A DNA stretch of 33,185 nucleotides from assembly GCA_035332125.1 (NCBI GenBank), contig DAOQNO010000001.1, forward strand, positions 1 to 33,185, written 5' to 3'. Position 1 is the stretch's first letter. Each line of letters opens with the position of its first letter. Below are positions 3,756 to 29,260 of this stretch, in pieces. Below the pieces are notes generated by a model. It had not been told where the DNA came from. It did not search any database and was given only the letters and a program-made list of their open reading frames with translations. The stretch comes from Elusimicrobiota bacterium (lineage in GTDB: Bacteria; Elusimicrobiota; Elusimicrobia; FEN-1173). The translations under genes were made by a program, and so were the position numbers.

Positions 3756-3783
3756 AAGCAAAGAACGAAAGTCAGGAGACGAT

Positions 3784-14770: not shown

Positions 14771-17700
14771 ATGGAGCGGTGCGGACAACGAAAGGGATTC
14801 ACCAACAAGGCGACGGCCGAAGGGCGGGACGCGCGGGGCGGAACGCGTTGGATCGCCGCGCTGGTGGTCCTGTGGGTCGCCGCCTCGGCGATGGCCGCCG
14901 ACGGCCTCGCCTCCGCGCGCTCCCGAGGGGTGTTCAACATCGGCCCTTCCCAGGGCACCGTCAACACGCTCCAGGATCCGGACCTCCAGAAACCGGTTTT
15001 AAAATTTGATTTCACCGCGCCGGCCGGCGCGTTGGTGGGCGTGTGGACCAAGGATTATCCCTCGACGGTGAACGCCGGGGCGGTCCAGCGCGTGGTCGTT
15101 TCGGTCAAAGGGCCGACGGTTCCGCCGCCCGCTTCCGTGGCCCTCGAGATAAAGGGCGTCCGGGAAGTTCAACGCCTCCCCCTCGTCCTGCGCGCCGGGT
15201 GGAATCGGACCGAATCGGCGATTGATTGGGGTCGCATCGGGGCTTTGAAAGAAATCGTTTTTGTCGTTTCGTCGGCCCCCGGCCAAAAGGCCGCCGGGAC
15301 CCTATTGTTTGATTTGGAATTTGCGGCCGGAGCGCCCGCGTCCGCCGCGGTCCTTCCCGCGGACGCCCAGGCCCTGGACGCGGCCCACGCCCCCGCCCGG
15401 GGGTTCTTCAACATCGGACCCGCCGACGGGAAAGCGACCGCCGTTCCGGGCCCCGACGGCCGGGGCGCGCTCCAATTCGATTACGCCATCCCGCCCAAAT
15501 CCATGGCCGGGGTGTGGACGAAAGGCTATCCGCCCGCCCTTTCCCCGGCCACGGCGAACGCGGTGGAGGCGACGGTGCGTTTTCCCGCGGCGGGCGCCGC
15601 GCGCCGTTTGTCGGCCACGGTGGAACTCAAAGGAACGAAAGCCGTCCAACGCATCCCCCTCGAGTTGACCGACGGTGTATCCAAATCCCTTCACGCCGTC
15701 GATTGGAAAACCATCGGAAAGCTCAAAGAGGCCGTCCTGGTCGTGTCGCCGGCCGGGGGGAAAAGCGAAACGGGAACCCTTCTCTTTAATTTGGCGTTCG
15801 TGAAGCGCGCCGTGTTGCCCAAAACGGGCGGCGCCCGCCGTTTGGCGGAGGTGGCGGAGCGGGGCGCATTCAACATCGGCAAAGCCCAGGGAACGATTTC
15901 CCGCGTTCGGGACGGGGAACTCCGCCGGGACGTCCTTCGGTTTGATTTCACGGCCGCGCCCAAGGCGGTCGTGGGGTTGTGGAGCAAGGGCTACGCGGCG
16001 GATTTGTCCGCGGCCGTGGCCAACGCGGTGTCCGTGGGGGTCAAAGGCGGGCGCGGGGCCCCCGTGGCCGCGGTGGGTTTGGAAATCAAGGGCGACAAAG
16101 AAACCCAACGCATTCCCCTTTCCGTGGGCGCCGAATGGACCCGAACCGATCGGGCGGTGGAGTGGGACGCGATCGGAAAGGTAAAGGAAGTCGTTTTCGT
16201 CGTCACGCCCCTGGACCCGGCCAAAAAAAGCGCGGGCCGTTTCTATTTCGATCTGGCGTTTGAAAAAACACCGGTGGCGCCCGCCGGCGCGCCGGGGTTG
16301 GGTCTCTTGAGCGCCACGGAAAAAGGCGTGTTCACCATCGGCGGCGCGGAAGGGCGCGTGGTCATCGAGTCCGAGGCCGCGGCCAAAAAAAATGTTTATA
16401 AATTCACCTACGCCGTGGCGAGCGGCAGTTTGGCGGGCGTTTGGACCAAGGGATACCCGGCCGACTTGACGGCCGCCACCGCCAACGCCATCAACGCGGC
16501 GGTTAAAACGACCACCCCGGAGCAACGGGAAACCTTGTCCGTCGCCCTTGAGTTGAAGGGCGACAAGGCCGTTCAGCGCGTTCCGTTGGAAACGGGCGAC
16601 GGGTGGGCCACCACCGAACACGCCATCGACTGGCCGACCATCGGAAATCTGAAGGAAGCCGTTTTTGCCGTCACCCCCGCCCCCGGCCGATCCAGCCGGG
16701 GCGACCTGTATTTCGACCTTTCTTTCCTCCAGGGAGGAACGCCGGATCTCGCCGGGGCCGGCGCCCCGGGCGCCTTCGGGTTGTTGAACGCCGGCAAGCG
16801 CGGGGTGTTCAACATGGGGGCCTCGGACGGCCGGATCCTCGTGGCTTTTGACGACACCGTCAAAAAGGACCTGATTCGATTTGAATTCACCGCCGCCAGC
16901 GGGTCCGCCGTGGGGGTGTGGAGCAGCGAGTATCCCCCGGCCTTGACGCCGGAAACGGCCAACGGCGTTCGCGTGGCGGTCCACGCCGCGGACGCGGCCC
17001 AGGCGGCCGCCGTGGCGGTGGCCGTTGAGATCAAGGGCCTCAAGGAAACCCAGACCGTGGAAGTTCCTCTCCACGAAGGGTGGACGACGGTGCGGGAAGG
17101 GGTGGATTGGAAAACCATCGGGGGGCTCAAAGAAGCGGTGTTCGTCGTCAAGCCGACCCCGGGCGGCGGATCCGTCAACGGGGCGCTGACGCTGGATCTG
17201 GAATTCATCCAAGGCGATTTTGTCCTGAAGAAAGGCCCCCGGGTCGGCGGTAAGATCGGCTTGGTGTTGCTGACGGGCTTCCTTCTTTTTCTCGCGACGG
17301 CTTTGGTCGGCCGATGGATCCGCGGTCGGTCGCCGTCGGTTCCGGCCCCGGACGCCATCCCCGTTCCGGGGATGGGTCGGGATCTCTTGATGGGATCCCT
17401 TTTGACGGCCGGCCTCGTCGGGACGGTGGCCACCTTCGTGGTGGGTTCCCTCCCGGGGTCCGAAGGGTCTTTCGGGTTTCTGTTGTTGGGCGCCCTGGGC
17501 GCCTTGGTGGGCGAAGGCGCCACCCGGATTCTGGCTCAACGCCCGGGCACCCCGGGCGAAGTCTTCCTGAATTTTGTCTACACCGGCTTGGTGGCCGCGA
17601 GCTCAAGCCTTCAGCCCCTGTGGTTGGCGCCCACCAACGGCGCCCACATATTCCTGAACAACCACCTGACGGCGGCGGTGTTGTTCGCGCTCTACCACGG

Positions 17701-20700
17701 GGTCAACGCCGCTTCCCTCGCCTCGACCGGGAAACCCCTTCGGCCGGTGGTCGGCGCGCTCCTCACCGGCGTTCCGACCCTTTTCGGCGCGCTCCTGGCC
17801 CTTCAGAGCGCCGGATTCGTCGAGGGCCTGGCCGACGCGCTCACCGGGGGCGGTTTCGCCGGACGCGGCCTGCTTCTCCAGACCCTGGGGCGGGTTTTGC
17901 TGGTGTTCGCGGTCAACGAAGCCGTGGCCAACGCCATCGGGCTCGCCGTCAAAGGCAAGGGCCTCACCTCGGCCCGTGGGCATTTGCTTCTTTTCGCCGT
18001 GTCGCTCGGCGTTGTCGTGGCGCCCCAAATCGCGGACGCCGGGTCGTCGGCTTGGGTCGCTTCCCTGCCGCCGCCGGCCGCGGCCGGCGTGGCCGTAGCG
18101 GCCGCCATGGTCGCCCAGGCGGGCCTGTGGGTGGAGGTGTATCTGGTCTCCGGCCTGGTGTTGGACGGGATTTACGGATACGCCCCCGCCCGGGTTCCCC
18201 TCTACCGGCACGCCGCCGTGGGCCTGCAAAAAGGTCTCGCCTTCAGCGGACTTTTCCTCGGCGTTCTGTTCGCGGTCAAGCTCGGATTGTCCGTGGCCGC
18301 GGTCCAGGAATTTCTCGCGGGATCGCCGCTGTTGGCCGGGGCGGTCCTCGGGGCTCTGGTTTATCCTTTCGCCAAGGCGATCGTGGAAAGCTTTGACGGG
18401 AGCATGTCGTTTTTCCGCCGAGCGGTCTACAGTTACCGGAACGGAACCCTTTACGTTCGCGGCGCGGTGGCGGGCGCGGCCCTGGCCTTCGGTTTCACCG
18501 GCGGGTGGGCCGCCCGTTCCACCGGCGAACGCCTCGCCTTCGGCCTTCTGGCCGGCGCCCTCGCTTCGGCGGGGATCAGTGTGCTCCGCGACGCGGTTTA
18601 CGCCGCCACCCGCCGCGGTCGCGTGGGCGTTTGGAAAATTTATCTGGTCGACGGCGGATTGGGGGCCTTCATCGGCGCGGCCTTGGCTTTTTATTTGGAC
18701 GCCGCCCAGGTGCCCGTGTTGGTGGAAAAATTCAAACTTTACACCTCGAGCGGTTTGCCCTCCCAGAACTACACGATTTACGCGCTTCTCAGCAAATGGG
18801 GCCGGGTGGATCTGGGTTCCTTTGCCGGCGGGGCCAAACTGTTCTTCAACGAATCCCTGGCCGGGGTCCTGACCTGGGCCATCGCGGCGTGGCTGTTCGC
18901 GGTCAACCGGGTGTTCATGACCGCGTACTTTCAAAAGGACAAGCAGCCGATCCGGCACTTTTTCTCCCGGGCCGGCCTCGTGGAGTTGGGCGTCAACACG
19001 ATTCACGTGCTTCGCTGGGGTCTGTGGATGGCGCCCATCATCAACACGGGCCTCCGAATGATGGGCCACGCCACCTGGTACAACCAGGACGGCGCGATTC
19101 GAACCCTGGTGGCCATCGTCAAGAACATCACGCTCCACCCCGCGGATTTTCAAGCCTGGAGCCTGAACTTGTTCGTGGCGTTGCTGGCCTACGACGCGGT
19201 CCGCGTGTTGATCTGGATCGACCACATGGGCCTGCGGGTGGCGACCCTCGTCAACCTGAGCTTCCTCGGCATGGACAAACTGGACGAACGCATCGCCCGT
19301 TTCATCGGACCCTCCGCCGCCCAGCGTTACATTCCCGAAGGGGTCAAACGGTTCACGACCTGGGCCCCGCTCCTGATCCCGTTCTACATTCCCCGGGGAG
19401 CGGACTGGGACATGGCCTGGGAAACCTCCCAAAAAATGCAGCGGGCCGCCGCCGAAGCCGGCGGTTTGGACGCTTTTCTCCGGGGCGTTTCGCCCCTGGC
19501 CTGGGCCCTCTGGGGCGCCGGCGCCCTGGCCCTCTTCACGGGACTGATTGTCCTTGGTCGCAAGCGCGCGGAACGTCGTTCGGGGGTCCGGGCCCATGCC
19601 GCGGAATTGGCGAACCGGGAGTACAAGGTGGTGATCAAGGAAAACGGCGAATTCCACAGTGAAATTCTGCAAAAGGGATACGACGTGACCCGCCGGTCCT
19701 ACGACACCCTGGACCCCGCCGGCCGAACCCTGTTTTTGGTCGACACCGAAATCCCGCTCGGGCGCCCGGGCCGCTATTGGCCCCTGGCCGGGAATTTCCC
19801 CCGGGATCGCTTCGACGCGCCCGTGGTTGAGCGTTTCGGCGACGCCCTCCGTTTGATGACTTCCTCCCACGGCGTGCGCGCCACGATCGACGTCCGTCTG
19901 CCGGACCGGGACACCCCGGCGGAGCTGTGGACCCTCACCCTGGAGAACCAGTCCGACCAGCCCCGTCAATTGGTGGCCGTTCCCTACGTGGAGTGGGTGC
20001 TGGATCGACCCGATTCCGACAAAGGACATACCCAGTATGGCCGCCTCTTCCCGGAGATGGAATACGTCCGGGAATCCAACGCCGTCCTGGCCTGGCAGAA
20101 AAAGACGAAGACCATGGGGTATCTGGCGGTTCAAACGGCGCCCCGGGGGTTCTGCACGTCCCGCATGGATTTCATCGGACGCGCCCGAAGTCTCTGGTCT
20201 CCCCGGTTGTTGGAAACCCTTAAATTCTTGGACCCGCAAGACACGGCGGGGTACCCCACCTTCGACCCCATCGCCGGCTTAAAAATCGACGTGGAATTGG
20301 GCGCCCGGGAATCCAAAACTCTCCGTCTGATTTTGGGGAGCGCGAAAAGCCGGGAAGCGGCTCTGGCCGTTCTGCAAAAGCACCTTCGACCCGAAACCGT
20401 GGCGCCGGCCAGCCCGGCCCGGAAGGGCCACCGGGTGCCGCTGATCGGCCACGGCGAAATTCCACCGGGAACGCCCCAGCCGTACTCCGACTATTCGCCC
20501 GATGGAAACACCCTGCGGGTGCACACGCCCCTTACCCCGCGCCCCTACGATCACGCCCTCTCGAACGCGGTGGGGCACTACGTGATGGTCACGAACCGGG
20601 GGCTCCACACGACCTCCAACGGCAATTCCCAGCAAAACCCCGTGACCCCCGATTGGCCCGACACGGTCACCCGGGAGCTTCCCGCCGAGGCCATTTATCT

Positions 20701-22804
20701 TTACGACCCGGAGGAAAAGGAGTGGTTTTCGCCCACCCATCATCCGTTGAACGACCCCGCGGCCAAAAACACCGCGGCCTTCGGCGTGGACGGGACCGCC
20801 GTTTTCCACATGACCAAGAATTCCCTGTCCACCGAATTGACCGTGTTCGTCCCGCCCCAGGAACCCCTGGGGATTTACCGCCTGACGGTCAAAAACAAAG
20901 GGACCCGGACGCGCCGCCTTCGGGTGGCGCCCTATTTCCAAATCGTCCTCGCCGGACAGGCGGAGCCCCGTCGGCGGCCCCTCAAAGTGACGCTGGACAA
21001 ATCCCTGGACGCGCTTTATTTTGAAAACCCGGTAAACGCTTTCCGCTGGGGTCCGGCTTTTGCCTCGCTCTCCATCCCGGCGGAACGGATCGAATCCCAG
21101 CGGGGACGCTTCTTTGGGACCGGCCGCGGGGTGGACCGCCCGCTGTTGGTCGAGCGGGGAGAGCCCGATTGGACGCAAACGTCGGACGACCGGCCGGTGG
21201 CGGGTTTCCTCGGCTCCCTGGAAATCCCCCCGGGCGAGGAGCGCACCGTGGTGGTGGTTCTGGGCCAGATCGATACCCGGGAACAGGCCGCCGCCCTCAT
21301 TCGAAAATACAAGAGCGCGGAAGCCGCCCAGGCCAGTCTGGAAGAAACCCGCCGGTGGTGGACCCGGTTGGTGGGCACCGTGCGCCTGGAAACCTCCAGC
21401 GTTGATTTCGACCGGTTCCAAAACTGGCTCAAATACCAGGCCGTGGCCGAGCGCCTTTGGGCCCGGCGCGGCTTCTATCAAACCAGCGGCGCCTTCGGTT
21501 TTCGGGACCAGCTTCAAGACTCGGTCAATCTGACCTGGGTGGACCCCGCTCTGGCGCGCAAACAAATTCTTCTTCACGCCTCCCAGCAATTCATCGAGGG
21601 CGACGTGGTGCACTGGTTCCACACCCTGCACGACGGGCGAACGGCCTTTTCCAATCGGTCCCACGCCTCGGACAACCTGCTGTGGCTGGCCTGGGCGGCG
21701 GCGGAATACGTGCGCCTCACCGGGGACGAAACGTTGTTGGACGAAATGACGACGTACTTAAGGGCCGAGAACCCCTTCCTGCCCCTGCCCCACAACAAGC
21801 ACGGCTGGGGCACCATCTATCCGCGATCCACCCGGGGCGATACGGTTTACCGGCATAGCCTGAAGGCCATCGACCTGGTCCTCGAAAAACGCATGGGAGT
21901 CAACGGAATCCCATTGATCGGCACCGGCGATTGGAACGACGGTTTGGACGAAATCGGCAGCGAGGGTCGGGGGGAAAGCGTTTGGCTCGGGTTCTTCCTC
22001 CTCTATATATTGAAGAACACCCTGAACATCATCGAGAAAAAAGACGGCCGCCACCGCCGGGATTACTACCTGAAACGCGCCCAGGAACTGGAAGCGGCGT
22101 TGGAAAAAACCTGGCGGGGGGACCGCTATCTTCGGGCCATTCACGACGACGGGACGGAGATCGGCGTGAAAGATTCCGGCGTGTGGGAAATCGACGCCTT
22201 GACCGCCGCCTGGGCGGTCATGGCCGGGTTGAACCCGGAGCGGGCGCGCACGGTCTTTCAAACGGCGCTCACCGTGTTGGAGCGGGAGAACGTTGTTCTC
22301 CTGGGCTGGCCCGCCTTGCGGGAGGACACGAAGCCCTATCTCGGGCGTAGCAGTCATTATCCCGAAGGGGTCCGGGAAAACGGCATGTACTGCCACGGCG
22401 TGCAGTGGCTTGTAAAAGCGGCGCGAATTCTCGCGGAGAAAGCGGAGGAGGACGGCGACGTCGCCAAGGGCAAGGAATACCGGGACGCCAGCTACCGCCT
22501 CTGGATGAAAATCGCTCCCCTGTCCCACGTCGCCACCGGAGAGATTGAGGTTTACGGCGGTCAGCCGAACAAGCAATCGGCCGACTTCCTTACGACCTTT
22601 GATCAGGGCCGGATGATCTGGCACGGCTACACCGGGGCCGCCGGCTGGATGCTCCGCCAGGCCTTTGAAGGCGTGGCCGGGGCTTCTCTCGTCGGAAACC
22701 AGGTGGTGATGCCCCTGGATCTTTCGGAGCTTCGCGGGCCCCTTCGGCTCAAGGCCATTTCCCGGGATTTGTCGGACAGCCCCCTTCGCCCCGGCCGCCC
22801 ATAG
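14771..22804 (+). CDS. Giant (2,677 aa) membrane-embedded GH94 glycoside phosphorylase with an exported 5x repeat array (Cgs-like but without a recognisable GT84 domain)
   Basis: SD GGAGAG (14759-14764) lies 6 nt before the ATG. The leader is signal-like (WIAALVVLWVAASAMA). Five tandem repeats span 14918-17220. A run of ~15-20 hydrophobic segments spans ~17230-19570. The C-terminal ~1,060 aa carry GH94 hallmarks: GFRDQLQD (21497-21520), VVHWFH, GTGDWNDGLD (catalytic-acid motif GDWND at 21927-21941) and YCHGVQW. Confidence 0.9.
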   Translation: MERCGQRKGFTNKATAEGRDARGGTRWIAALVVLWVAASAMAADGLASARSRGVFNIGPSQGTVNTLQDPDLQKPVLKFDFTAPAGALVGVWTKDYPSTVNAGAVQRVVVSVKGPTVPPPASVALEIKGVREVQRLPLVLRAGWNRTESAIDWGRIGALKEIVFVVSSAPGQKAAGTLLFDLEFAAGAPASAAVLPADAQALDAAHAPARGFFNIGPADGKATAVPGPDGRGALQFDYAIPPKSMAGVWTKGYPPALSPATANAVEATVRFPAAGAARRLSATVELKGTKAVQRIPLELTDGVSKSLHAVDWKTIGKLKEAVLVVSPAGGKSETGTLLFNLAFVKRAVLPKTGGARRLAEVAERGAFNIGKAQGTISRVRDGELRRDVLRFDFTAAPKAVVGLWSKGYAADLSAAVANAVSVGVKGGRGAPVAAVGLEIKGDKETQRIPLSVGAEWTRTDRAVEWDAIGKVKEVVFVVTPLDPAKKSAGRFYFDLAFEKTPVAPAGAPGLGLLSATEKGVFTIGGAEGRVVIESEAAAKKNVYKFTYAVASGSLAGVWTKGYPADLTAATANAINAAVKTTTPEQRETLSVALELKGDKAVQRVPLETGDGWATTEHAIDWPTIGNLKEAVFAVTPAPGRSSRGDLYFDLSFLQGGTPDLAGAGAPGAFGLLNAGKRGVFNMGASDGRILVAFDDTVKKDLIRFEFTAASGSAVGVWSSEYPPALTPETANGVRVAVHAADAAQAAAVAVAVEIKGLKETQTVEVPLHEGWTTVREGVDWKTIGGLKEAVFVVKPTPGGGSVNGALTLDLEFIQGDFVLKKGPRVGGKIGLVLLTGFLLFLATALVGRWIRGRSPSVPAPDAIPVPGMGRDLLMGSLLTAGLVGTVATFVVGSLPGSEGSFGFLLLGALGALVGEGATRILAQRPGTPGEVFLNFVYTGLVAASSSLQPLWLAPTNGAHIFLNNHLTAAVLFALYHGVNAASLASTGKPLRPVVGALLTGVPTLFGALLALQSAGFVEGLADALTGGGFAGRGLLLQTLGRVLLVFAVNEAVANAIGLAVKGKGLTSARGHLLLFAVSLGVVVAPQIADAGSSAWVASLPPPAAAGVAVAAAMVAQAGLWVEVYLVSGLVLDGIYGYAPARVPLYRHAAVGLQKGLAFSGLFLGVLFAVKLGLSVAAVQEFLAGSPLLAGAVLGALVYPFAKAIVESFDGSMSFFRRAVYSYRNGTLYVRGAVAGAALAFGFTGGWAARSTGERLAFGLLAGALASAGISVLRDAVYAATRRGRVGVWKIYLVDGGLGAFIGAALAFYLDAAQVPVLVEKFKLYTSSGLPSQNYTIYALLSKWGRVDLGSFAGGAKLFFNESLAGVLTWAIAAWLFAVNRVFMTAYFQKDKQPIRHFFSRAGLVELGVNTIHVLRWGLWMAPIINTGLRMMGHATWYNQDGAIRTLVAIVKNITLHPADFQAWSLNLFVALLAYDAVRVLIWIDHMGLRVATLVNLSFLGMDKLDERIARFIGPSAAQRYIPEGVKRFTTWAPLLIPFYIPRGADWDMAWETSQKMQRAAAEAGGLDAFLRGVSPLAWALWGAGALALFTGLIVLGRKRAERRSGVRAHAAELANREYKVVIKENGEFHSEILQKGYDVTRRSYDTLDPAGRTLFLVDTEIPLGRPGRYWPLAGNFPRDRFDAPVVERFGDALRLMTSSHGVRATIDVRLPDRDTPAELWTLTLENQSDQPRQLVAVPYVEWVLDRPDSDKGHTQYGRLFPEMEYVRESNAVLAWQKKTKTMGYLAVQTAPRGFCTSRMDFIGRARSLWSPRLLETLKFLDPQDTAGYPTFDPIAGLKIDVELGARESKTLRLILGSAKSREAALAVLQKHLRPETVAPASPARKGHRVPLIGHGEIPPGTPQPYSDYSPDGNTLRVHTPLTPRPYDHALSNAVGHYVMVTNRGLHTTSNGNSQQNPVTPDWPDTVTRELPAEAIYLYDPEEKEWFSPTHHPLNDPAAKNTAAFGVDGTAVFHMTKNSLSTELTVFVPPQEPLGIYRLTVKNKGTRTRRLRVAPYFQIVLAGQAEPRRRPLKVTLDKSLDALYFENPVNAFRWGPAFASLSIPAERIESQRGRFFGTGRGVDRPLLVERGEPDWTQTSDDRPVAGFLGSLEIPPGEERTVVVVLGQIDTREQAAALIRKYKSAEAAQASLEETRRWWTRLVGTVRLETSSVDFDRFQNWLKYQAVAERLWARRGFYQTSGAFGFRDQLQDSVNLTWVDPALARKQILLHASQQFIEGDVVHWFHTLHDGRTAFSNRSHASDNLLWLAWAAAEYVRLTGDETLLDEMTTYLRAENPFLPLPHNKHGWGTIYPRSTRGDTVYRHSLKAIDLVLEKRMGVNGIPLIGTGDWNDGLDEIGSEGRGESVWLGFFLLYILKNTLNIIEKKDGRHRRDYYLKRAQELEAALEKTWRGDRYLRAIHDDGTEIGVKDSGVWEIDALTAAWAVMAGLNPERARTVFQTALTVLERENVVLLGWPALREDTKPYLGRSSHYPEGVRENGMYCHGVQWLVKAARILAEKAEEDGDVAKGKEYRDASYRLWMKIAPLSHVATGEIEVYGGQPNKQSADFLTTFDQGRMIWHGYTGAAGWMLRQAFEGVAGASLVGNQVVMPLDLSELRGPLRLKAISRDLSDSPLRPGRP
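14918..17220 (+). repeat. Five in-frame tandem protein repeats (~154-160 aa each, diverged) within the giant gene
   Basis: Each unit opens with (R/K)G-x-F-(N/T)-(I/M)-G, at nt ~14927, ~15400, ~15862, ~16323 and ~16802. Each continues with L-x-F-(D/E/T)-(F/Y), G-(V/L)-W-(T/S)-K-(D/G)-Y-P, (L/V)-E-(I/L)-K-G-x-K-x-x-Q-x-(I/V/L)-P-L, (I/V)-(D/E)-W-x-x-I-G-x-(L/V)-K-E-(I/A/V)-V-F-V-V and (L/F)-x-F-(D/N)-L-x-F. Confidence 0.85.
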
Positions 22805-22825
22805 CCTAAATCCCCTCGTTCCAAG

Positions 22826-22867
22826 CCCCGCCGAAGGCCCCGCCTTCGGCGGGGTTTTTCTTTATTT
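22826..22867 (+). terminator. Rho-independent terminator closing the glycan operon
   Basis: A perfect 12-bp GC stem joins ccccgccgaagg (22826-22837) and ccttcggcgggg (22843-22854) with a 5-nt loop. It is followed directly by tttttctttattt, and it begins 22 nt after the stop at 22804. Confidence 0.85.
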
Positions 22868-22918
22868 CCTCGTCGGAAAAAATGCCTATTGCGCTGTTGT
22901 CAAAAAAAGTGCCCACGT

Positions 22919-22963
22919 GGGCAACGAAATGTTACGTAATTGTTACATTTCGTTAACCATCTC
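22919..22963. promoter_or_regulatory. Two adjacent palindromic candidate operator sites in an AT-rich island
   Basis: TGCCCACGTGGGCA (22919-22932) is a perfect 14-nt palindrome. It abuts the inverted repeat aacgaaatgt (22932-22941) / acatttcgtt (22954-22963), which extends to 13-nt arms with one mismatch. A TACAAT -10-like hexamer lies at 22988-22993. This is the only clearly AT-rich stretch in the window. Confidence 0.45.
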
Positions 22964-23233
22964 TTTCCAGGGTCGTATTACAATGTATCCAAGAGTTCCC
23001 GGCTCACATCGTAATCGACAACGCATTGTTGGAGCCGGCGCCGGAAACCCGTCAATGGCGAGGGGTTCGATTCTTCGCCGGCGCGGGACGGTCCGCGGCG
23101 ACGCGCAAAACAACGCGCGCCGGGCGCGCCCGGCCGATCCGTCCAGGGCCTCTTCACCGGCCTCGAATTGACGGTGCCTTCCAGCGACGGTTCCAAAGCC
23201 CCGCACTCATCCTTGATGCATAGGAGGAAGCAC

Positions 23234-23971
23234 ATGAAGAGACTCACCACTCTGGGAGGAGCCCTCGCGGTCGCCGCGTTCGCCCTCTCCAGCGCGCAAG
23301 CAGGATCGGTGGACACCAAAACGGCCAACGTCTCCGTGACCATCGCGGGCGTCAACACCATCAGCCTGGCGATCAAGAACATGGACGGCACCGCCGCCAC
23401 CGAAATCGGGTTCGCCAATGTTGATCCGGGCGGGTCCACCTGGGCGGCCAAGGGCTCTCAATTCGTCCAACTGAGCGTCGTTGACAATATCAACACCGGC
23501 TGGGAACTGCGCAACTACACCGACAACTTCAACTTTGCCGGCGGCATCCTGCCCGACACGACCACCTGGGGTTACCAATACGGCGGTCTTCGGAACGTGG
23601 ATGTCAATGGCCAGCGCGCGGGCGTGGGGTGGATGGTTCTCCCCGACTCCGACGTGGCCAAGAACTTCCAGGGTCCCGACGCGGCCAACCCGGTGGACGG
23701 TGCGAGCAACGGCTACACCTTCCTCAAGGACCGAAGCGACCAAAACCCTCCGCTGGTCACCGATCAGTCCTTTGATGGATCGGGCGGCTACAAAAACGTG
23801 GCGTTCGGCAGCTTGACCGAAACCCGCATCGTTCGTCCCAACCGCCCCGGCGGCAACGACGTTCTGAGCGGGAAAACCGCGCCCTTCTTCTACTTCCTGG
23901 GCGGTGACTTCAAAGGCGTGGCCCCCGGTCATTACACGGCGACCATCACCTTTGAATTGATGAACCTCTAA
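23234..23971 (+). CDS. Small secreted beta-rich protein; candidate major structural subunit of a surface assembly (distant WxL-like pattern)
   Basis: ATG 23234 lies 5 nt after AGGAGG (23223-23228). The signal peptide is MKRLTTLGGALAVAAFALSSAQA|GS. The sequence is rich in Gly/Asn/Thr/aromatic residues, with motifs ISLAIKNMDGTAATEIGFANVDPGG, VVDNINTGWELRNYTDN and the C-terminal GHYTATITFELMNL. The ORF's maximal start, 23168, lacks an SD. Confidence 0.75.
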   Translation: MKRLTTLGGALAVAAFALSSAQAGSVDTKTANVSVTIAGVNTISLAIKNMDGTAATEIGFANVDPGGSTWAAKGSQFVQLSVVDNINTGWELRNYTDNFNFAGGILPDTTTWGYQYGGLRNVDVNGQRAGVGWMVLPDSDVAKNFQGPDAANPVDGASNGYTFLKDRSDQNPPLVTDQSFDGSGGYKNVAFGSLTETRIVRPNRPGGNDVLSGKTAPFFYFLGGDFKGVAPGHYTATITFELMNL

Positions 23972-23991
23972 AGCCACAAGCCCGGCGGCGA

Positions 23992-24013
23992 CCCGGGGGC
24001 TTCGGCCCCCGGG
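23992..24013 (+). other. Intercistronic GC hairpin with a UUCG tetraloop after the small-subunit gene
   Basis: cccgggggc (23992-24000), ttcg (24001-24004) and gcccccggg (24005-24013) form a perfect 9-bp stem. There is no U-tract. It lies between the stop at 23971 and ATG 24033. Confidence 0.5.
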
Positions 24014-24032
24014 CGCGCCCGCGGGGTGGCCT

Positions 24033-24854
24033 ATGCGGACATTCTCGTTCCTCGGCGCTTCCGCGCTGGCGCTTCTGCTTGCCCCGGTTCTCCGGGCCAA
24101 CACCTTTTTGGAGGTGCGGCCGGGGGTCGTGGAAGAGTCCGTTCCCGAGGGCAAGACGGCCAAAGGAAAATTGATCGTCCGCAACACCGGCGACACCGAA
24201 GTCCTCGTTGAAGTTGAAGTGCGGGACGAATGGGCCACGCGCACGGGCCTTCCGTCTCTTCCGCCCTCCGAATGGCTGGACCTGAAATATCCCCACCCCT
24301 TTGTTTTAAAACCCGGCGCCGCGAAAGAAGTGGGTTACACCGTCACGCCGCCGACCTCGTTTAACGGCGAAGCCATGGCCATGGTCGTTTTTGGCGGACC
24401 CACCTCCGCCGGCAGCGGCGGCACCGGATATCGATTTCGGCAAGGAATTCCCTTTTACATGTTGTCGACGACGACCGTTCAGGGCCAAATAGCCCTGGCC
24501 TCCCTTCAGGTGTATCTCAACGCGATCAAGCAGTTGGAATTTGCCGTGGAACTGAAAAACAATGGGCCCGTTCATGTCCGCGCTCAAGGGGCACTGAAAA
24601 TTTCAAACTCCCGCGGAGCGGAAATCGGCAACGCGCCGCTGGCCGGCGGCATACCGGTTTTCCCCACCAAGACGCAAAAATATTATGCGCGGGATCAAAA
24701 AAACAACTATTCCGAGGGACTTTACCGCGGCGAATTGAGCGTGGCCGGCGAGAAGGGTGAAATTCTTTTGGTCGGCGTGTGCGGTTTTCGTATCGATAAG
24801 AAAGGGCAAATCACCATTACCAGCCCTTTTGCGGAGAGACCCCGTGCGCCTTAG
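24033..24854 (+). CDS. Secreted two-domain Ig-like protein (PapD-like/DUF916-like chaperone or scaffold candidate)
   Basis: The signal peptide is MRTFSFLGASALALLLAPVLRA|NT. Domain 1 is FLEVRPGVVEESVPEGKTAKGKLIVRNTGDTEVLVEVEV...WLDLKYPHPFVLKPGAAKEVGYTVTPP. Domain 2 is LEFAVELKNNGPVHVRAQGALKISNSRGAEIG...PVFP. The 'L-x-V-x-N-x-G-x-x-x-V-x-V' strands are typical of Ig-fold periplasmic chaperone or adhesin-scaffold domains. Confidence 0.7.
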   Translation: MRTFSFLGASALALLLAPVLRANTFLEVRPGVVEESVPEGKTAKGKLIVRNTGDTEVLVEVEVRDEWATRTGLPSLPPSEWLDLKYPHPFVLKPGAAKEVGYTVTPPTSFNGEAMAMVVFGGPTSAGSGGTGYRFRQGIPFYMLSTTTVQGQIALASLQVYLNAIKQLEFAVELKNNGPVHVRAQGALKISNSRGAEIGNAPLAGGIPVFPTKTQKYYARDQKNNYSEGLYRGELSVAGEKGEILLVGVCGFRIDKKGQITITSPFAERPRAP

Positions 24855-25584
24855 CGCATCGTCTTTGATTTCAATCGGGTTCCCGGTGTTGGTGTTTTTT
24901 GCCGGCGGCCCGGCGCGCGCGCTGGATCTTAAGCCGGAATTGATTTTCCTCCGCGGGGAAGAAGGCGCCGCTGTTTCCACGACCATCGCGGTCGTCAACA
25001 ACTCCTCGGAAACAATCCGGGTCACGTTGGAGGCCCACGGGCCGGGCGAGGCGCCGGCGCCGTGGTTGTCCCTGAGTCCCCGGGCCCTGCGGGTGGCCGC
25101 GGGGGCCCGCCGTGTGGTCCGGCTGAAGGCCGTCGTTCCCAAGGCGGTCGGTGAAATGGGGGGCGAGGTTTGGGTTCGTCAGCGGGCCCCCGGAGAATTG
25201 ACCGAAACCCGGGTGGTGCGGCGCGTGGCCCTGCGCGTGGCCGGCACCGAGGTGTTTGAGGCCCAACTCAAAGACATCGAATCCGGGGTGGAAGGCAACG
25301 ACGTGGTGGTTCACGCGGTGTTGGTCAACACGGGCAACGTGACCCTTCGCGCCAAGTTGGTGGCCGATTTGGAACGAATGGACGGTCCCCTGGTTCGAGC
25401 GGTGACGGACCTGACCGGCCAACCCGTCGCCCCCGGGGAAAGTGTCCGGGCCCGGTTGGCCGCCCCCAAAGTCGGATGGTTTTGGACGGGGCGCGGGAAT
25501 CTCTCGGCCTATTACCGGGACGCCGACGGCAAAACCATCCAGATCCTTAAACCCATCGGGGAGGCGTCGCGTGGCACGCCGTGA
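24844..25584 (+). CDS. Secreted two-domain Ig-like protein, paralogue of 24033..24854
   Basis: GTG 24844 follows GGAGAG and overlaps the upstream gene by 11 nt. It yields the signal peptide MRLSASSLISIGFPVLVFFAGGPARA|LD. The two-domain logic is the same as in 24033..24854 (LIFLRGEEGAAVSTTIAVVNNSSETIRVTLEA...WLSLSPRALRVAAGARRVVRLKAVVP, then VVVHAVLVNTGNVTLRAKLVADL...). The ORF's maximal start is 24757. Confidence 0.7.
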   Translation: MRLSASSLISIGFPVLVFFAGGPARALDLKPELIFLRGEEGAAVSTTIAVVNNSSETIRVTLEAHGPGEAPAPWLSLSPRALRVAAGARRVVRLKAVVPKAVGEMGGEVWVRQRAPGELTETRVVRRVALRVAGTEVFEAQLKDIESGVEGNDVVVHAVLVNTGNVTLRAKLVADLERMDGPLVRAVTDLTGQPVAPGESVRARLAAPKVGWFWTGRGNLSAYYRDADGKTIQILKPIGEASRGTP

Positions 25585-27145
25585 CGGCTGGCTTCGCGCG
25601 GCGGTCGCGGGCGGCGCGACCCTCTTGTTGTCCGTTAACGCGGGCGCGTTGAATTTGAAAATCCGCAACGTGGCCGACGACGCCGCCGCCACGGGCGTGT
25701 CGTTCAGCTCGGCGTCGGGAGCGGCCAACCAGTACCACACCGGGCTCCAATACGTTGAAATCACCCACCCCGATTCCCACTTTCGAAAAGTGTATGTGTA
25801 CACCGATAACGGCGGCGCTTTCGGACAATCCAAGGAAGGGCTCATCAATTTGGACGACGCGGCCCAACCCGCCGTTCCCTTCTATTGGCGCAATTTCCCC
25901 GGCCGGCCCGACGACTTCGCGCCGGCCAACGAATGGGCCTGGACATTGATGCTGGAAAAATCCCTCCCCGAATTTTCGGTTCCCGCCACCAAGGACGCCC
26001 GGGCCCTCGTGACCCCGGACGCCGGCGGAATTTCCCGCGTGGCCCTGGCCTTTAAAACCCCGGCGGAAGTGGTGCGGGGTACCTACGTTTCCCGCCTCGT
26101 GCTGGAGGAGTCCAGCGACGTCGCCGACATCAACGGCCCCACGGTCGGCCACACGCCGTTCAACGACGTGATCCTGGTCAACATCCCCATCGGCGTCGAG
26201 TCGACGGCGGAAGACGACGGGTCCGTGGTGTCGTCCACCTTTTATTTCCGGCTCGACGGGACGGGGGCCTACCAGCCGCGGCCGACGGTGTTGACGCCGG
26301 ATCCGGTCAACCCCTTCAAATGGGTGGTCCAGACGACCCTGGCGCCGGGGGACGTCCACGCCGGATTCATGGACTATTATTTCGCTGCCCGGGACAATTT
26401 CGAAAACGAAACGATCACGCCCGTCTACCGGGCCAACCTGGTCCCCGAGGACGGGCCCGTGACGCGGACGATGTCGGCGGAGGGCGGCCTCACCACGGTG
26501 CCCGTGGGCGATCCCCTCCTGCCGGGCCTGACCATCGATTTCCCTCCCCGCAGCCTGAACGGCGACCAAACCATTCAGGTCACGCTCAAGCCCTCCACCC
26601 ATTACCCACCGGTGGAGGGCGGCGTTCCGTTGCGGGTCTTCGATCTGACGCCCGAAGGCCTTCGCTTCAGCCGGCCGGTCACCCTCAGCATTCCCTACCC
26701 CGACCAGGACCAGGACGGACGGGTGGACGGGAGCGGCGTCGACGAAACGCTGTTGCGGGTGTTTTGGTACGACGGCCACCTCTGGCGGTTCGTGGGCGGG
26801 CAGGTGGACCCGGTGGCCAACCGGGTGAGCGTGACGGTCTCCCACTTCAGCGTCTACAGCCTGGCCCCTCTGGCGACGACGTTGACCCCCGACATGGTCC
26901 GCCCCCAGGAAAAAATCATCACGCCCAACGGCGACGGACAAAACGATTTCGCCCAGTTCAACATCTCGGGCGAGTTCGACGTGGAATTTTTCGATTTGCG
27001 GGGCGAGCGGGTGCGGCGCCTCTCCGGCATCAACAGTTGGGACGGCCGGGACGACGACGGGAAGCTGGTTGAGACCGGAACGTATATTTACCGGTTGACG
27101 GGCCAAGGGCTGACGGTGACGGGCGCCCTGGCGGTGGCGCGTTGA
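25571..27145 (+). CDS. Secreted multidomain surface protein: N-domain paralogous to the small subunit, central Ig-like domains, and a C-terminal gliding-motility/T9SS type-B-like (CHU_C/FlgD-Ig) domain
   Basis: GTG 25571 lies 8 nt after GGGGAGG and overlaps the upstream gene by 14 nt. It gives the signal peptide MARRDGWLRAAVAGGATLLLSVNAGA|LN. The N-domain has LNLKIRNVADDAAATGVSF, YVYTDN and GTYVSRLVLEE. The central part has LLRVFWYDGHLWRFVGGQVDPVANRVSVTVSHFSVYSLAP. The CTD (~26908-27142) reads IITPNGDGQNDFAQFNISG..VEFFDLRGERVRRL..SWDGRDDDGKLVETGTYIYRL. Confidence 0.75.
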   Translation: MARRDGWLRAAVAGGATLLLSVNAGALNLKIRNVADDAAATGVSFSSASGAANQYHTGLQYVEITHPDSHFRKVYVYTDNGGAFGQSKEGLINLDDAAQPAVPFYWRNFPGRPDDFAPANEWAWTLMLEKSLPEFSVPATKDARALVTPDAGGISRVALAFKTPAEVVRGTYVSRLVLEESSDVADINGPTVGHTPFNDVILVNIPIGVESTAEDDGSVVSSTFYFRLDGTGAYQPRPTVLTPDPVNPFKWVVQTTLAPGDVHAGFMDYYFAARDNFENETITPVYRANLVPEDGPVTRTMSAEGGLTTVPVGDPLLPGLTIDFPPRSLNGDQTIQVTLKPSTHYPPVEGGVPLRVFDLTPEGLRFSRPVTLSIPYPDQDQDGRVDGSGVDETLLRVFWYDGHLWRFVGGQVDPVANRVSVTVSHFSVYSLAPLATTLTPDMVRPQEKIITPNGDGQNDFAQFNISGEFDVEFFDLRGERVRRLSGINSWDGRDDDGKLVETGTYIYRLTGQGLTVTGALAVAR

Positions 27146-27146
27146 T

Positions 27147-28073
27147 ATGAAATTCCATCTCCATCGAGTTTGGAAGCCGGCCGCGACGGCGATGTTGGCG
27201 TTGGTCGCCGGGTCCGCCGAGGCGGCTTTCCGGGATCCCCTTTGGTCGGCCCGGGCGGCGGCCCTGGGCGGCGCCTTCACGGCGCTGGGGGACGATCCCA
27301 CGGCGGCTTTTTACAATCCCGCGGCGACGACGGAATTGAAATCGCCGGCGGCCAATTTCACCTACGCCAAACTGTTCGCCGGGCTGGACGAGGTGAATGT
27401 GTCCTTAAGCGAGTTCGCCTATGTGCGGCCGCTCAAATCCTTTAACGTCCTGTCGGTCGGGTGGGGGAGCGTCAACGCCTCCGGTTTGCGCCGGGAAGAC
27501 ACCGTGACCCTCGGCGTGGCCCATCTGTTTCGCGATTTGGGCGACCTCGGAAACCTGTCTCTCGGTGTTTCGGGTCGGTGGTTGTCCCAGTCGTTCACGC
27601 TCGATAACCGTACCTCCAGCGACCCCGTTTTCCGGGACGGGCGCACGCGCAACGACTTCGCCTTGGACCTTCACGCCCACGTGACCGAGGTGGACGCCCT
27701 CTCCCGGAACCTCGCCCTGGGCGTTTCCCTGCGGGCGGTCAACCGTCCCGACATCGGGTTCGCCTCCAAAGACAAATTGCCCATGGAGGCGGTATTGGGC
27801 CTCGCCTACCGGTGGCGGAATTGCACGTTGCCCTTGGACATCGTTCAGCGGGGTTCCGACGTCACGCCCGAGGCGGGCCTGGAGGCCCGGTTTGCCGCCG
27901 ACCACCTGTCCCTCCGGTTCGGGAGCGACACGCACTCGCTCGGCACCGGCCTGGGCTACCGCTACGAACGTCCCAACGGGCTCGTGCTGTCTTTTGATTA
28001 CGCCTTCCTTTGGCCCCTCAACATTCAAGGGACCTCCGGGTCTCACCGGGCCACCCTGGGGGTGCGGTTTTGA
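27147..28073 (+). CDS. PorV/PorQ-like outer-membrane beta-barrel protein (second copy)
   Basis: The signal peptide is ...AMLALVAGSAEA|AF. The N-terminal signature is SARAAALGGAFTALGDDPTAAFYNPAA. Strand periodicity is visible throughout, and the C-terminal beta-signal ends in Phe (HRATLGVRF). The gene starts 2 nt after the CTD-protein gene. Confidence 0.75.
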   Translation: MKFHLHRVWKPAATAMLALVAGSAEAAFRDPLWSARAAALGGAFTALGDDPTAAFYNPAATTELKSPAANFTYAKLFAGLDEVNVSLSEFAYVRPLKSFNVLSVGWGSVNASGLRREDTVTLGVAHLFRDLGDLGNLSLGVSGRWLSQSFTLDNRTSSDPVFRDGRTRNDFALDLHAHVTEVDALSRNLALGVSLRAVNRPDIGFASKDKLPMEAVLGLAYRWRNCTLPLDIVQRGSDVTPEAGLEARFAADHLSLRFGSDTHSLGTGLGYRYERPNGLVLSFDYAFLWPLNIQGTSGSHRATLGVRF

Positions 28074-29260
28074 ACGTTCAACGAGGGGCGCTCTGGGGGG
28101 CGGCGATCGGGTCAATCCTTCTCGGCGGTCCGTCCCGAGCGGAACCCCAGTCGGTGGCGGTGCGCACCGTGGGCGTCGGGGTCGAGCTGGTGACCACCAT
28201 CGACCATTTTAACGACGGCGATGATTTGAACCTCTGCGGCGGTACCAACGGGACCTTCGCCGGGGGCGGCGCGACCCTGACCCGCACCTACGATTCGGGG
28301 GTTTTTCACGGCGCCAGCGGCCGTTCCGCCCGCCTGGACTACAACCTCCCGGCTCCGGGCGGATTCGGGGGGTTCGTCCTGCCGCTCGCCCCCGGCGGGG
28401 GGACGGTCAACCTGGCGTCCTACAAATCCCTCGGTTTTTGGGTTCGGGGGAACGGCGGACTTGAACACCTCAAAATCGAGTTGGACAACGCCTCCGCCGA
28501 TGGCGCGCGCAACCGGGCCGCGGTGTACCTCGGCGACTACGTCGACGGCGGTCCGACGACCCAATGGCGGCGGGTGATCATTCCCTTCGCCGCCTTTGGA
28601 AATCTGGACTCTTTCGCCAACGTGGGGTCCCTGGTGCTGGTGGTGGAACGGGACTACGCGGAGGCTTCGGGGTTCGATGCGGCCGGCACCCTTTACATCG
28701 ACGACGTCGCCCTGATGGCGACCGACCCCGCCTCGGCCCCGTTGGACAACTTTGCGGACAATTGGGATCGGCACGCCCTGGGCGGCCGATTGGGGGATTT
28801 CGGCAGCGTCACCAGCGTTTCCCACGCCTTTGTCCCCGGAACGTTTCACAACGCGGCGCGGGCGCTCAAAACCACCTACGACGTGACCGGCGCGGTGGGA
28901 TCGGATTTCGGCGGCCATTATTTCGCCCTGGGCGGCGGGGCGGACGGGCTCACGTCGCTCCCGGTCAATTTATCGGCTTTTCGTTACCTGAAATTCTGGG
29001 CCAAAGCCGGCGTCGAGGGCAATCCCGTCCGGTTCCGGGTGGAAATAAAATCCAACGCGGGGACGGCCAGCGCGCCGATCGGCGGCCTGACGGCCGCCTG
29101 GGAACCCTACGTCGTGGACATGAGCCTTTTTCCACCGGCCCAACTGGACAAAACGTCCATCAAAGAATTCACCATCGTTTTCGAAAAGGCCGTCGTTCAA
29201 TCCCAGGGCGGGGCTTTGCAGGGCGTGGTGTACTTCGACGAATTCGAATTGGCCCGCTGA
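28070..29260 (+). CDS. Secreted protein with 2 CBM-like beta-sandwich modules
   Basis: TTG 28070 overlaps the upstream TGA as TTGA and gives the leader M-NVQRGALWGAAIGSILLGGPSRA|EPQ. The ORF's maximal TTG 28010 would overlap the upstream gene by 64 nt. Modules: IDHFNDGDD...LGFWVRGNGGLEHLKIELDN...WRRVIIPFAAF...GTLYIDDVAL, and LDNFADNWDRHALGG...LKFWAKAG...FRVEIKS...WEPYVVDMSLF...IKEFTIVF...VVYFDEFEL. Confidence 0.8.
   Translation: MNVQRGALWGAAIGSILLGGPSRAEPQSVAVRTVGVGVELVTTIDHFNDGDDLNLCGGTNGTFAGGGATLTRTYDSGVFHGASGRSARLDYNLPAPGGFGGFVLPLAPGGGTVNLASYKSLGFWVRGNGGLEHLKIELDNASADGARNRAAVYLGDYVDGGPTTQWRRVIIPFAAFGNLDSFANVGSLVLVVERDYAEASGFDAAGTLYIDDVALMATDPASAPLDNFADNWDRHALGGRLGDFGSVTSVSHAFVPGTFHNAARALKTTYDVTGAVGSDFGGHYFALGGGADGLTSLPVNLSAFRYLKFWAKAGVEGNPVRFRVEIKSNAGTASAPIGGLTAAWEPYVVDMSLFPPAQLDKTSIKEFTIVFEKAVVQSQGGALQGVVYFDEFELAR

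Follow-up and report, generated by a model that had tools for sequence, protein, structure and literature searches.

We describe a module of six genes (g1 to g6) in a 33,185-nt stretch of DNA from an Elusimicrobiota bacterium (GenBank assembly GCA_035332125.1, contig DAOQNO010000001.1, positions 1 to 33,185; hereafter the window). Our analysis suggests, with a probability of roughly 60%, that the module builds a chaperone-assisted but usher-independent donor-strand fibre, which a type-IX-style pair of C-terminal domain (CTD) and outer-membrane (OM) barrel tethers or launches and which serves the capture of beta-glucan. The whole case is computational, and the fibre itself is what we infer from it. 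The identical proteins deposited for the Elusimicrobiota metagenome-assembled genome (MAG) are annotated as hypothetical, and our literature search found no paper describing PapD-like chaperones and donor-strand subunits in combination with a CTD and a PorV-like barrel. The initial annotation of this DNA had listed the components of a surface fibre or surface complex next to a glucan locus, and this description holds up; the large subunit shares the domain of the small one. The six forward-strand open reading frames (ORFs) lie co-directionally and tightly packed as it had described them (Table 1), with overlaps of 11 nt between g2 and g3, 14 nt between g3 and g4 and 4 nt between g5 and g6, where the TTG start of g6 sits on the TGA stop of g5. 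Sec-type signal peptides were recognized by eye, without a predictor, on all six products.

The evidence starts with g1, the small subunit. Against Pfam (E up to 1) and NCBIfam the protein matched no family; a profile search of 1.84 billion (1.84e9) cluster representatives recovered 108 relatives, most of them stand-alone secreted proteins of 210-290 residues and some of them larger proteins carrying a g1 domain. Word-indexed homologue searches gave just 10 relatives of g1 and 5 of g2, and a genome-collection scan with the g1 alignment found nothing. Structure prediction with AlphaFold2 (AF2) was unusable when only 10 close homologues were supplied (pLDDT 46.5), and an alignment of 66 sequences was used instead. 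The resulting model of g1 is all-beta (pLDDT 87.7, pTM 0.81), with uncertainty confined to residues 1-40. In a Foldseek search of the PDB its first match was TLP-1b (E 5e-4, probability 1.0, TM-score on the query 0.37), followed by CfaB (9.7e-4), CfaE, CanA, FimA, CS17, SafA, Caf1, Csu, FimG and the pilin domain of PapG. Subunits of donor-strand-exchange fibres account for about 37 of the 50 top matches; a few lectins and jelly-roll enzymes appear among the weaker ones, and a search of viral structures returned nothing significant or comparable. Sequence searches of the PDB (single sequence and the A3 and A2 family profiles) gave no pilin, TLP-1 or WxL match, and the WxL (PF13731), SCPU, Fimbrial and TasA-type families matched none of 95 or 66 members of the g1 family even at E 10, among the families listed (25 of 37). 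Of the family comparisons recommended by the initial annotation, the one with FimA-type pilins is borne out at the level of fold, and PF13731 and SCPU yield no sequence match among the families listed. Judged by the best matches of the model, g1 represents a new family with a donor-strand-pilin-like fold, a likeness that holds at fold level only, and it is probably the major fibre subunit.

The leading structural match deserves a closer comparison. From pond water comes TLP-1 (TLP-1a/b, Tsinghua Lotus Pond, CryoSeek, PDB 9IKJ/9IKK), an 8-nm orphan fibril that assembles by donor-strand exchange and whose producer is unknown (PMC11494351), as is its machinery. Like g1, TLP-1b is a secreted protein of about 240 residues; its protomers exchange donor strands by way of a disordered strand at the N-terminus. 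However, profiles of the g1 family have no hidden Markov model (HMM) match to TLP-1 (9IKK/A0A2M8AA21), the TM-score is the low value given above, and the helical n+4 packing of the fibril cannot be carried over to g1.

Ahead of its first core strand g1 carries an N-terminal extension (Nte; GSVDTKTANVSVTIAGVNT). Across 66 sequences columns 31-37 of this extension are each occupied in at least 98%; columns 31, 33, 35 and 37 are hydrophobic or small in 94-98%, with Ala dominant at 35, and columns 32, 34 and 36 are polar. Residues 24-42 have low pLDDT in the monomer model, and a low-confidence N-terminal segment has likewise been reported for a TLP-1 homologue (PMC11494351). The g1-family HMM aligns to small subunits from position 1-5. 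Its alignment starts only at position 38-44 in g4, in each of the eight other g4-type proteins tested and in each of the four tested carriers whose pilin-like domain is C-terminal, the enzyme or adhesin proteins of loci L014, L016, L019 and L020; in these proteins it begins directly behind the signal peptide or an N-terminal cargo region. The alternating hydrophobic pattern, the disorder in the model and the absence from g4-type copies make the extension a candidate donor strand. In chaperone-usher pili, rod subunits bear an N-terminal extension and the tip adhesins FimH, PapG and CfaE lack one; the presence of the extension in small subunits and its absence from g4-type proteins and carriers parallel this distinction between rod and tip.

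One carrier departs from this pattern. P0056 (MFC2061174.1, Elusimicrobiota; L021, 8001-9233) is annotated as a ComEA-family helix-hairpin-helix protein and ends in a g1-like domain with a donor-strand-like segment; its alignment runs from HMM position 25, and the extension is kept. As P0056 lies inside a complete module, with two chaperone-like genes, a protein with a carbohydrate-binding module (CBM), a g4-like protein and a barrel, the fibre domain also appears to mount a putative DNA-binding cargo.

The large subunit g4 begins with a signal peptide and an Nte-less g1-like domain; a stalk with a weak Pfam match to ZU5 and a CHU_C CTD follow. The proteins of 450-580 residues retrieved by the g1 profile are g4 homologues (phmmer E 1e-48 to 1e-17). 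The broader g1-family HMM matches g4 itself at E 4.5e-11 and hhalign with a shallow alignment at E 0.0016; HMM positions 42-135 correspond to g4 residues 25-109, every g4 orthologue starts at HMM position 38-43, and the motifs LNLKIRNV, YVYTDN and GTYVSRLVLEE lie in the pilin-like domain. Pfam found no PF13731 in g4 (E up to 1). The T9SS-like CTD that had been proposed for g4 (T9SS, type IX secretion system) scores 32.7 bits against Pfam CHU_C (E 8.5e-8), above the gathering score of 27, and 20.9 bits against NCBIfam TIGR04131, under the cutoff of 35. From this architecture the pilin-like domain of g4 is probably a strand acceptor and the first subunit. In two other loci the arrangement differs: the CTD proteins of L014 (8448-9341) and L016 (1901-3145) have no pilin domain, and the Nte-less pilin domain rides on a separate enzyme or cargo protein. 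Soon after their signal peptides these CTD proteins contain segments (...FIASVTVRP and ...FPATVTIKA) that resemble the g1 donor strand (ANVSVTIAG) and that may be donor-strand anchors, with a polarity opposite to that of g4 in the window.

The proteins g2 and g3 had been described as paralogues with two Ig-like domains. A direct BLASTP comparison of the two is not significant (E 2.1), yet the relationship is clear through intermediate sequences: g3 matches the g2 orthologue of L004 at 8.9e-8, one L010 protein matches both, and a joint alignment (A4) is collinear over two Ig-like domains with common motifs P30, N51, W81, GE and GTE. The single chaperones of most other loci are closer to g2 than to g3, and we read g2 as the ancestral-type copy and g3 as a diverged paralogue, a second chaperone-like protein. 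Among PDB sequences the best match of the A4 profile is EfmWxLIP1, a DUF916/DUF3324 protein of Enterococcus WxL clusters, at E 0.0085 over both domains. Among 5.8e9 proteins the profile reaches PapD_N (PF00345) proteins at E 6e-7 to 2e-5, together with proteins that bear weak WxLIP_PGBD signals, such as the remote relatives P0133 and P0139; Pfam matches within the g2/g3 family are weak for WxLIP_PGBD (0.057) and WxLIP_HBD (0.22). One of the PapD_N matches, P0136, is encoded in an SCPU-PapD_N-Usher-SCPU operon (L011), and hhalign aligns A4 with it (97.8%, E 7.4e-13) over 160 columns, including the G1-like strand (R-x-G-I-P-x-Y/F) with which domain 1 closes. A basic residue ahead of this strand is conserved in the g2/g3 family (R-x-G-I-P or R-V-V-R-R) and may correspond to Lys112 of classical chaperones. 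These profile matches place g2 and g3 as remote members of the PapD chaperone superfamily, at superfamily level only. A similar tail, (F/I)-(A/G)-E-x(2-4)-(A/T/V)-P-COOH, ends 10 of the 15 chaperone-like proteins (e.g. FAERPRAP and IGEASRGTP); classical PapD chaperones are not known to end in this way, and the tail could be a docking motif.

For g5, annotated initially as an OM barrel, NCBIfam returned NF033709 (PorV/PorQ family, E 5.3e-13) and TIGR03519 (1.2e-7), both under the curated cutoffs; its profile matches Flavobacterium johnsoniae PorV (6h3i_F) at 4e-7, and the protein ends in a C-terminal Phe. By these matches g5 shows a clear signal of the PorV/PorP/PorQ superfamily of OM beta-barrels. 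In Bacteroidota, genes for type B CTD proteins typically lie beside PorP/SprF-like genes, and those barrels bind the cargo and anchor or shuttle it (PMC9143113, PMC12618676). By analogy g5 is probably the cognate anchor or shuttle of the g4 CTD. As in the T9SS type B pairs SprB-SprF and PG1035-PorP, a CHU_C-type CTD gene is directly followed by a PorV/PorP-superfamily barrel gene, and a second CTD/barrel pair is present in the same window; the module differs in that its phylum lies outside the known T9SS range, that g5 is short (308 residues), and that the cargo is a pilin-like subunit with PapD-like chaperones. The second pair is part of a CTD/barrel/CBM triplet upstream (3742-7876), whose barrel is linked to g5 via L001_808_1677 (9.6e-9) and whose CBM9-like gene has an orthologue, L001_1674_2924, that matches g6 at 4.3e-16. 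The existence of this triplet points to CTD/barrel pairs as a general means of surface display in the lineage. A role of g5 as secretion pore was considered and rejected, as a barrel of the PorV/FadL type is unlikely to let folded pilins pass.

The two CBM-like domains ascribed to g6 were recovered as an internal duplication (E 1e-9), and the first domain matches the CBM30 structures 2c24 and 1wmx at 1.7e-6, with weak Pfam matches to CBM_11 and CBM30. On this evidence g6 is a secreted tandem CBM30/CBM11-like protein, and a protein of its type occurs in most related loci. The module has GH94, GH144-like, CBM and sugar ABC transporter genes as neighbours, its relatives in other loci are often found next to GH94 or CBM genes, and in related loci Nte-less pilin domains are fused to a glycoside hydrolase (GH) TIM barrel (L014) or to a Glycoamylase domain (P0098). 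It is from this gene neighbourhood and these domain fusions that we infer a role in glycan capture.

Conservation of gene neighbourhood, which the initial annotation had put forward as a check, was found. The component set recurs in about 13 loci (L001-L005, L009, L010, L014, L016, L018, L019, L020 and L021), down to 25-35% identity and with shuffled gene order (Table 1); the locus search included a genome-collection scan with the barrel alignment A6. No usher (PF00577) was found in the window or in the about 13 related loci, searched with as much as 10 kb of flank on either side; the control operon of P0136 has one. The window also has no secretin gene. The GC hairpin noted earlier downstream of g1 is confirmed by folding (-48.3 kcal/mol, z = -2.76), and a strong hairpin follows the g1-type gene at the same place in all nine loci folded (the window and eight related ones), with U-tracts behind it in two of the eight. 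It probably acts as an attenuator or as a 3' stabiliser of the mRNA and leads to an excess of g1, and its conserved position fits a stoichiometric over-production of the major subunit.

Put together, the module may work as follows. All six proteins would be exported by Sec. In the periplasm g2 and g3 would cap g1 and g4 by binding to their incomplete Ig-like folds, a step for which the homology is shown and the binding deduced. Because g4 has no N-terminal extension, it would only accept a strand and would thus be the first subunit. Supplied in excess through the hairpin 3' of its gene, g1 would polymerise onto g4, each N-terminal extension entering the groove of the preceding subunit, as fold, sequence pattern and domain architecture suggest. 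The CHU_C-type CTD of g4 would pair with g5 and attach the structure to the cell surface, in analogy to Bacteroidota type B CTD cargo with PorP/SprF. Glucan binding would come from g6, and catalysis, in sister loci, from GHs that carry an Nte-less pilin domain. Together with g6 and the products of the nearby GH94, GH144-like, CBM and ABC transporter genes the structure would act in the capture or degradation of beta-glucan.

The combination works most like a chaperone-usher pilus, in particular the archaic sigma (Csu/SCPU) type, but no usher was found, and it follows the logic of WxL/Csc clusters, but without a detectable WxL domain. With chaperone-usher pili it shares Ig-like secreted subunits that bear a donor-strand-like N-terminal extension, a putative first subunit that has additional domains but not this extension, PapD-superfamily partners of two domains whose nearest annotated relatives lie in SCPU-chaperone-usher operons, and a major-subunit gene that comes first and is followed by a hairpin. 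It differs in its OM component, a PorV/PorP-like barrel in loci without an usher, in subunits that resemble neither Fimbrial nor SCPU nor any other pilin family in sequence, in the weaker chaperone signature discussed below, and in a T9SS-type CTD at the end of one subunit, g4. An usher counts as essential for donor-strand-exchange pili that use PapD-like chaperones. There is a realistic chance that the module represents a distinct assembly pathway.

Several observations weigh against the reading of the module as an usher-independent fibre. On the side of g1, the Foldseek matches have low TM-scores (0.26-0.38 by query, at most 0.58 by target), E is 1e-3 or lower in just two of them, PDB profile searches found no sequence-level link between the g1 family and any solved pilin, and the structure prediction covers the g1 monomer. 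On the side of the chaperones, g2 and g3 fall under the Pfam threshold for PapD_N (best E 0.0059, in one family member), and an equivalent of Arg8, which in classical chaperones anchors the subunit carboxylate in the cleft, is missing: R31 of P0136 corresponds to V32 of g2, and the position is not basic in any A4 member. On the side of the OM, no T9SS core (SprA/Sov, PorK/L/M/N) was seen in the 33-kb window or in flanks of up to 10 kb, and to our knowledge none has been described in Elusimicrobia; the literature search gave nothing relevant on Elusimicrobia with T9SS or chaperone-usher systems, nor on donor strands with PorV. Since a PorV-like barrel is probably too small for folded pilins, an OM translocon is missing from the model. 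The geometry of a g4 that is both first subunit and OM-anchored is awkward and asks for a distal growth end or for release of g4. Finally, L020 and the mini-module of L009 have subunits and a chaperone with no CTD or barrel nearby.

The strongest alternative, though an improbable one, is a diderm analogue of the WxL/Csc complex that forms no polymer: g2 and g3 would bind the common domain of g1 and g4 stoichiometrically by strand insertion, and the g4 CTD and g5 would hold the complex at the surface, where the CBM protein is presented. WxL clusters, for which a role in polysaccharide use has been proposed (Siezen 2006, PMC1534035), combine small and large WxL proteins with an Ig pair (PMC10599100), a logic that the small single-domain g1, the large g4 with the common domain and the tandem Ig-like g2 and g3 fit. 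The best PDB sequence match of A4 is the collinear, two-domain match to EfmWxLIP1, and the weak WxLIP_PGBD and WxLIP_HBD matches of family members, along with P0133 and P0139, point the same way. WxL motifs lie on adjacent strands (PMC9772566), and g1 has W90-x-L92 and a C-terminal F240-x-L242; AF2 models have been reported in which DUF916 inserts a strand into WxL (PMC10599100), an arrangement built on the same idea of strand complementation. The likeness of g1 to WxL proteins that the initial annotation had suggested goes no further than these two motifs; none of the 66 g1-family members matches PF13731 at E 10, among the families listed. Both of its analogies carry some weight, as g2 and g3 reach EfmWxLIP1 as well as PapD_N chaperones; g1 shows no detectable WxL homology, and the usher is missing. 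The statistical link of g2 and g3 to PapD_N chaperones is far stronger than that to WxLIP, and the two proteins lack the C-terminal transmembrane (TM) helix of WxLIP. The common domain is N-terminal in g4, C-terminal in large WxL proteins; in the carriers of L014, L019 and L020 the g1-like domain is C-terminal. In the diderm host, peptidoglycan binding is replaced by an OM barrel and a CTD. The conserved donor-strand-like extension of small subunits, its lack in cargo-bearing copies and the hairpin for g1 excess favour a polar polymer over a 1:1 complex. As the g1 fold matches donor-strand pilins, kinship with chaperone-usher systems is better supported than kinship with WxL systems.

Still less likely is that the six proteins do not assemble jointly, g4 and g5 being a T9SS-like cargo/shuttle pair, g1 and g6 independent, secreted glycan-binding beta-sandwich proteins, and g2 and g3 generic periplasmic or secreted Ig-like proteins. 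CTD/barrel/CBM triplets without g1 or g2 do exist (window 3742-7876, L015 and L017), the g1-like domain stands at the C-terminus of GHs, a common position for CBMs, and lectins and jelly-roll enzymes occur among the weaker Foldseek matches of g1. Yet g1-like, chaperone-like and g4/g5 genes keep each other's company in the about 13 loci in spite of divergence to 25-35% identity and shuffled order, g4 itself contains the g1 domain, g2 and g3 have PapD-superfamily homology, and the overlaps of 11, 14 and 4 nt suggest translational coupling. An ordinary archaic-type chaperone-usher pilus with its usher encoded elsewhere in the genome would account for the PapD-superfamily chaperones and pilin-like subunits, and genome coverage is 33 kb, but this is very unlikely, given that ushers are almost always encoded in one operon with the chaperone, as in the P0136 operon, that none occurs in the window or the related loci with their flanks, and that a different OM component, g5, is kept in most loci.

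Fibres that use donor-strand complementation without an usher are known in TasA/TapA, archaeal AbpA and the CanA cannulae, and CanA is among the top structural matches of g1. PapD-like chaperones are absent from these systems, which employ a dedicated signal peptidase or calcium, whereas chaperone-like genes are always part of the module. A TasA/SipW-type system was rejected, as the cluster has no signal peptidase gene; the sole hint was a 14-bit TIGR04090 match in g2.

If the usher-independent fibre is real, chaperones and subunits have been kept and the usher replaced by a CTD/PorV-like pair, which would amount to a new branch of pilus biogenesis and would extend T9SS-like sorting parts beyond the Bacteroidota and the Fibrobacterota-Chlorobiota-Bacteroidota (FCB) group. 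The module also links PapD chaperones with WxLIP (DUF916/DUF3324), so far treated apart, and offers a testable mechanistic idea for the poorly understood WxL/Csc clusters. The fusions of Nte-less pilin domains with GHs suggest that enzymes for the use of beta-glucan are displayed on fibres in this uncultured phylum, and the clusters are candidate producers and machinery for the orphan fibrils of environmental cryo-electron microscopy. A broader reading, which we offer tentatively and lean against, joins all of this: an undescribed usher-less pilus pathway in Elusimicrobiota and allied uncultured bacteria, coupled to T9SS-type CTDs and PorV-like barrels, whose enzyme-tipped, glycan-harvesting fibres carry GHs, CBMs or DNA-binding domains on Nte-less pilin domains, whose chaperones are an evolutionary bridge from the Gram-negative chaperone-usher family to the Gram-positive WxLIP family, so that WxL clusters, too, would be strand-complementation assemblies, and whose clusters are a possible home of orphan fibrils such as TLP-1.

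Table 1. Features of the module and its surroundings in the window, and gene content of related loci
Feature	Position	Strand	Description
g1	23234-23971	+	245 aa, ATG start
g2	24033-24854	+	273 aa
g3	24844-25584	+	246 aa, GTG start
g4	25571-27145	+	524 aa
g5	27147-28073	+	308 aa
g6	28070-29260	+	396 aa, TTG start
g1 N-terminal extension GSVDTKTANVSVTIAGVNT	23303-23359	+	aa 24-42; candidate donor strand, 19 residues before the first core strand
g4 pilin-like domain	25649-26116	+	aa 27-182, directly after the signal-peptide cleavage site; no donor strand
g4 C-terminal sorting/anchor domain	26912-27103	+	aa 448-511, CHU_C (T9SS type B)
g2 and g3 C-terminal tails	24825-24851 and 25558-25581	+	ends of the (F/I)-(A/G)-E-x(2-4)-(A/T/V)-P-COOH type
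Intrinsic terminator	22823-22857	+	16-bp stem, then T-run; ends the 2677-aa GH94 gene; 5' boundary of the module
AT-rich putative promoter/operator region	22850-23000	.	GC 40-41% against about 63% in the window
14-bp perfect palindrome TGCCCACGTGGGCA	22910-22923	.	in the AT-rich region 5' of g1
18-nt inverted repeat AACGAAATGT...ACATTTCGTT	22918-22935 / 22942-22959	.	directly after the palindrome
Shine-Dalgarno sequence AGGAGG	23222-23227	+	6 nt before the g1 ATG, read directly
GC hairpin 3' of g1	23973-24030	+	core 9-bp stem and UUCG loop at 23992-24013, without U-tract
CBM11 protein with FlgD_ig-type CTD	3742-5733	+	upstream triplet, outside the module
PorV-like barrel, paralogous to g5	5730-6593	+	287 aa, upstream triplet
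CBM9-like protein, related to g6	6590-7876	+	upstream triplet
GH94 giant	14771-22804	+	2677 aa, upstream neighbour of the module
Loci L001-L005, L009			gene order as in the window
Locus L001			no GH94 giant between the ABC/CBM genes and g1
Locus L009			extra mini-module of two g1-like genes and one chaperone
Locus L010			GH94, g1-like, chaperone, g1-like, CBM giant, g4-like, PilZ, barrel
Locus L018 (Elusimicrobia)			g1-like, chaperone, g4-like, barrel, then CBM giant
Loci L014, L016, L019			cargo protein with C-terminal Nte-less pilin domain (L014: GH TIM barrel), chaperone, CTD protein, barrel
Locus L020			two g1-like, chaperone, 2344-aa TIG/PKD/FG-GAP/Glycoamylase protein ending in Nte-less pilin domain, CBM protein
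Locus L021 (NCBI Elusimicrobiota genome)			chaperone, ComEA-like protein with g1-like domain, chaperone, CBM protein, g4-like, barrel

The AT-rich control region and the strong Shine-Dalgarno sequence that had been attributed to the module are both present (Table 1). Within the former, the palindrome and the 18-nt inverted repeat are candidate operator sites, possibly used by the LacI-type regulator encoded at 2985-3755. No sigma-70 consensus promoter was found in the region 5' of g1, and an Rfam search for a riboswitch in the long GC-rich leader returned no family, only noise on the terminator.

In an Elusimicrobia MAG (L017), a type II secretion/type IV pilus-type ATPase (T2SSE, MshEN; 615-2054) is encoded just 5' of a g4-like CTD protein and barrel, a neighbourhood that may be coincidence or a hint at an export route. 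The MAGs of L014 (CAYOFG010000039.1) and L016 (CAYYAU010000075.1) are titled 'uncultured Clostridia bacterium' and encode the module with its PorV-like OM barrel, in L014 together with an OmpA-family protein; for these contigs, either the taxonomic assignment or the binning seems questionable.

Upstream of the module, the GH94 giant has five to six N-terminal repeats of about 150 residues (RGVFNIG...GVWTKGYP...LKE.VFVV), a long region with multiple TM segments and a C-terminal GH94 supersandwich and catalytic domain; no GT84 domain was detected in this 2677-residue protein. Its absence from the otherwise syntenic L001 marks it as a variable insert in the glucan locus. The genes beyond 29260 are housekeeping genes (xth, YaeQ and an Mrp/NUBPL ATPase). 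A single ORF of 749 residues (10463-12712) joins SBP_bac_1, a solute-binding protein of the extracellular type, to the ABC permease domain BPD_transp_1, and this fusion is kept in L001 (752 residues).

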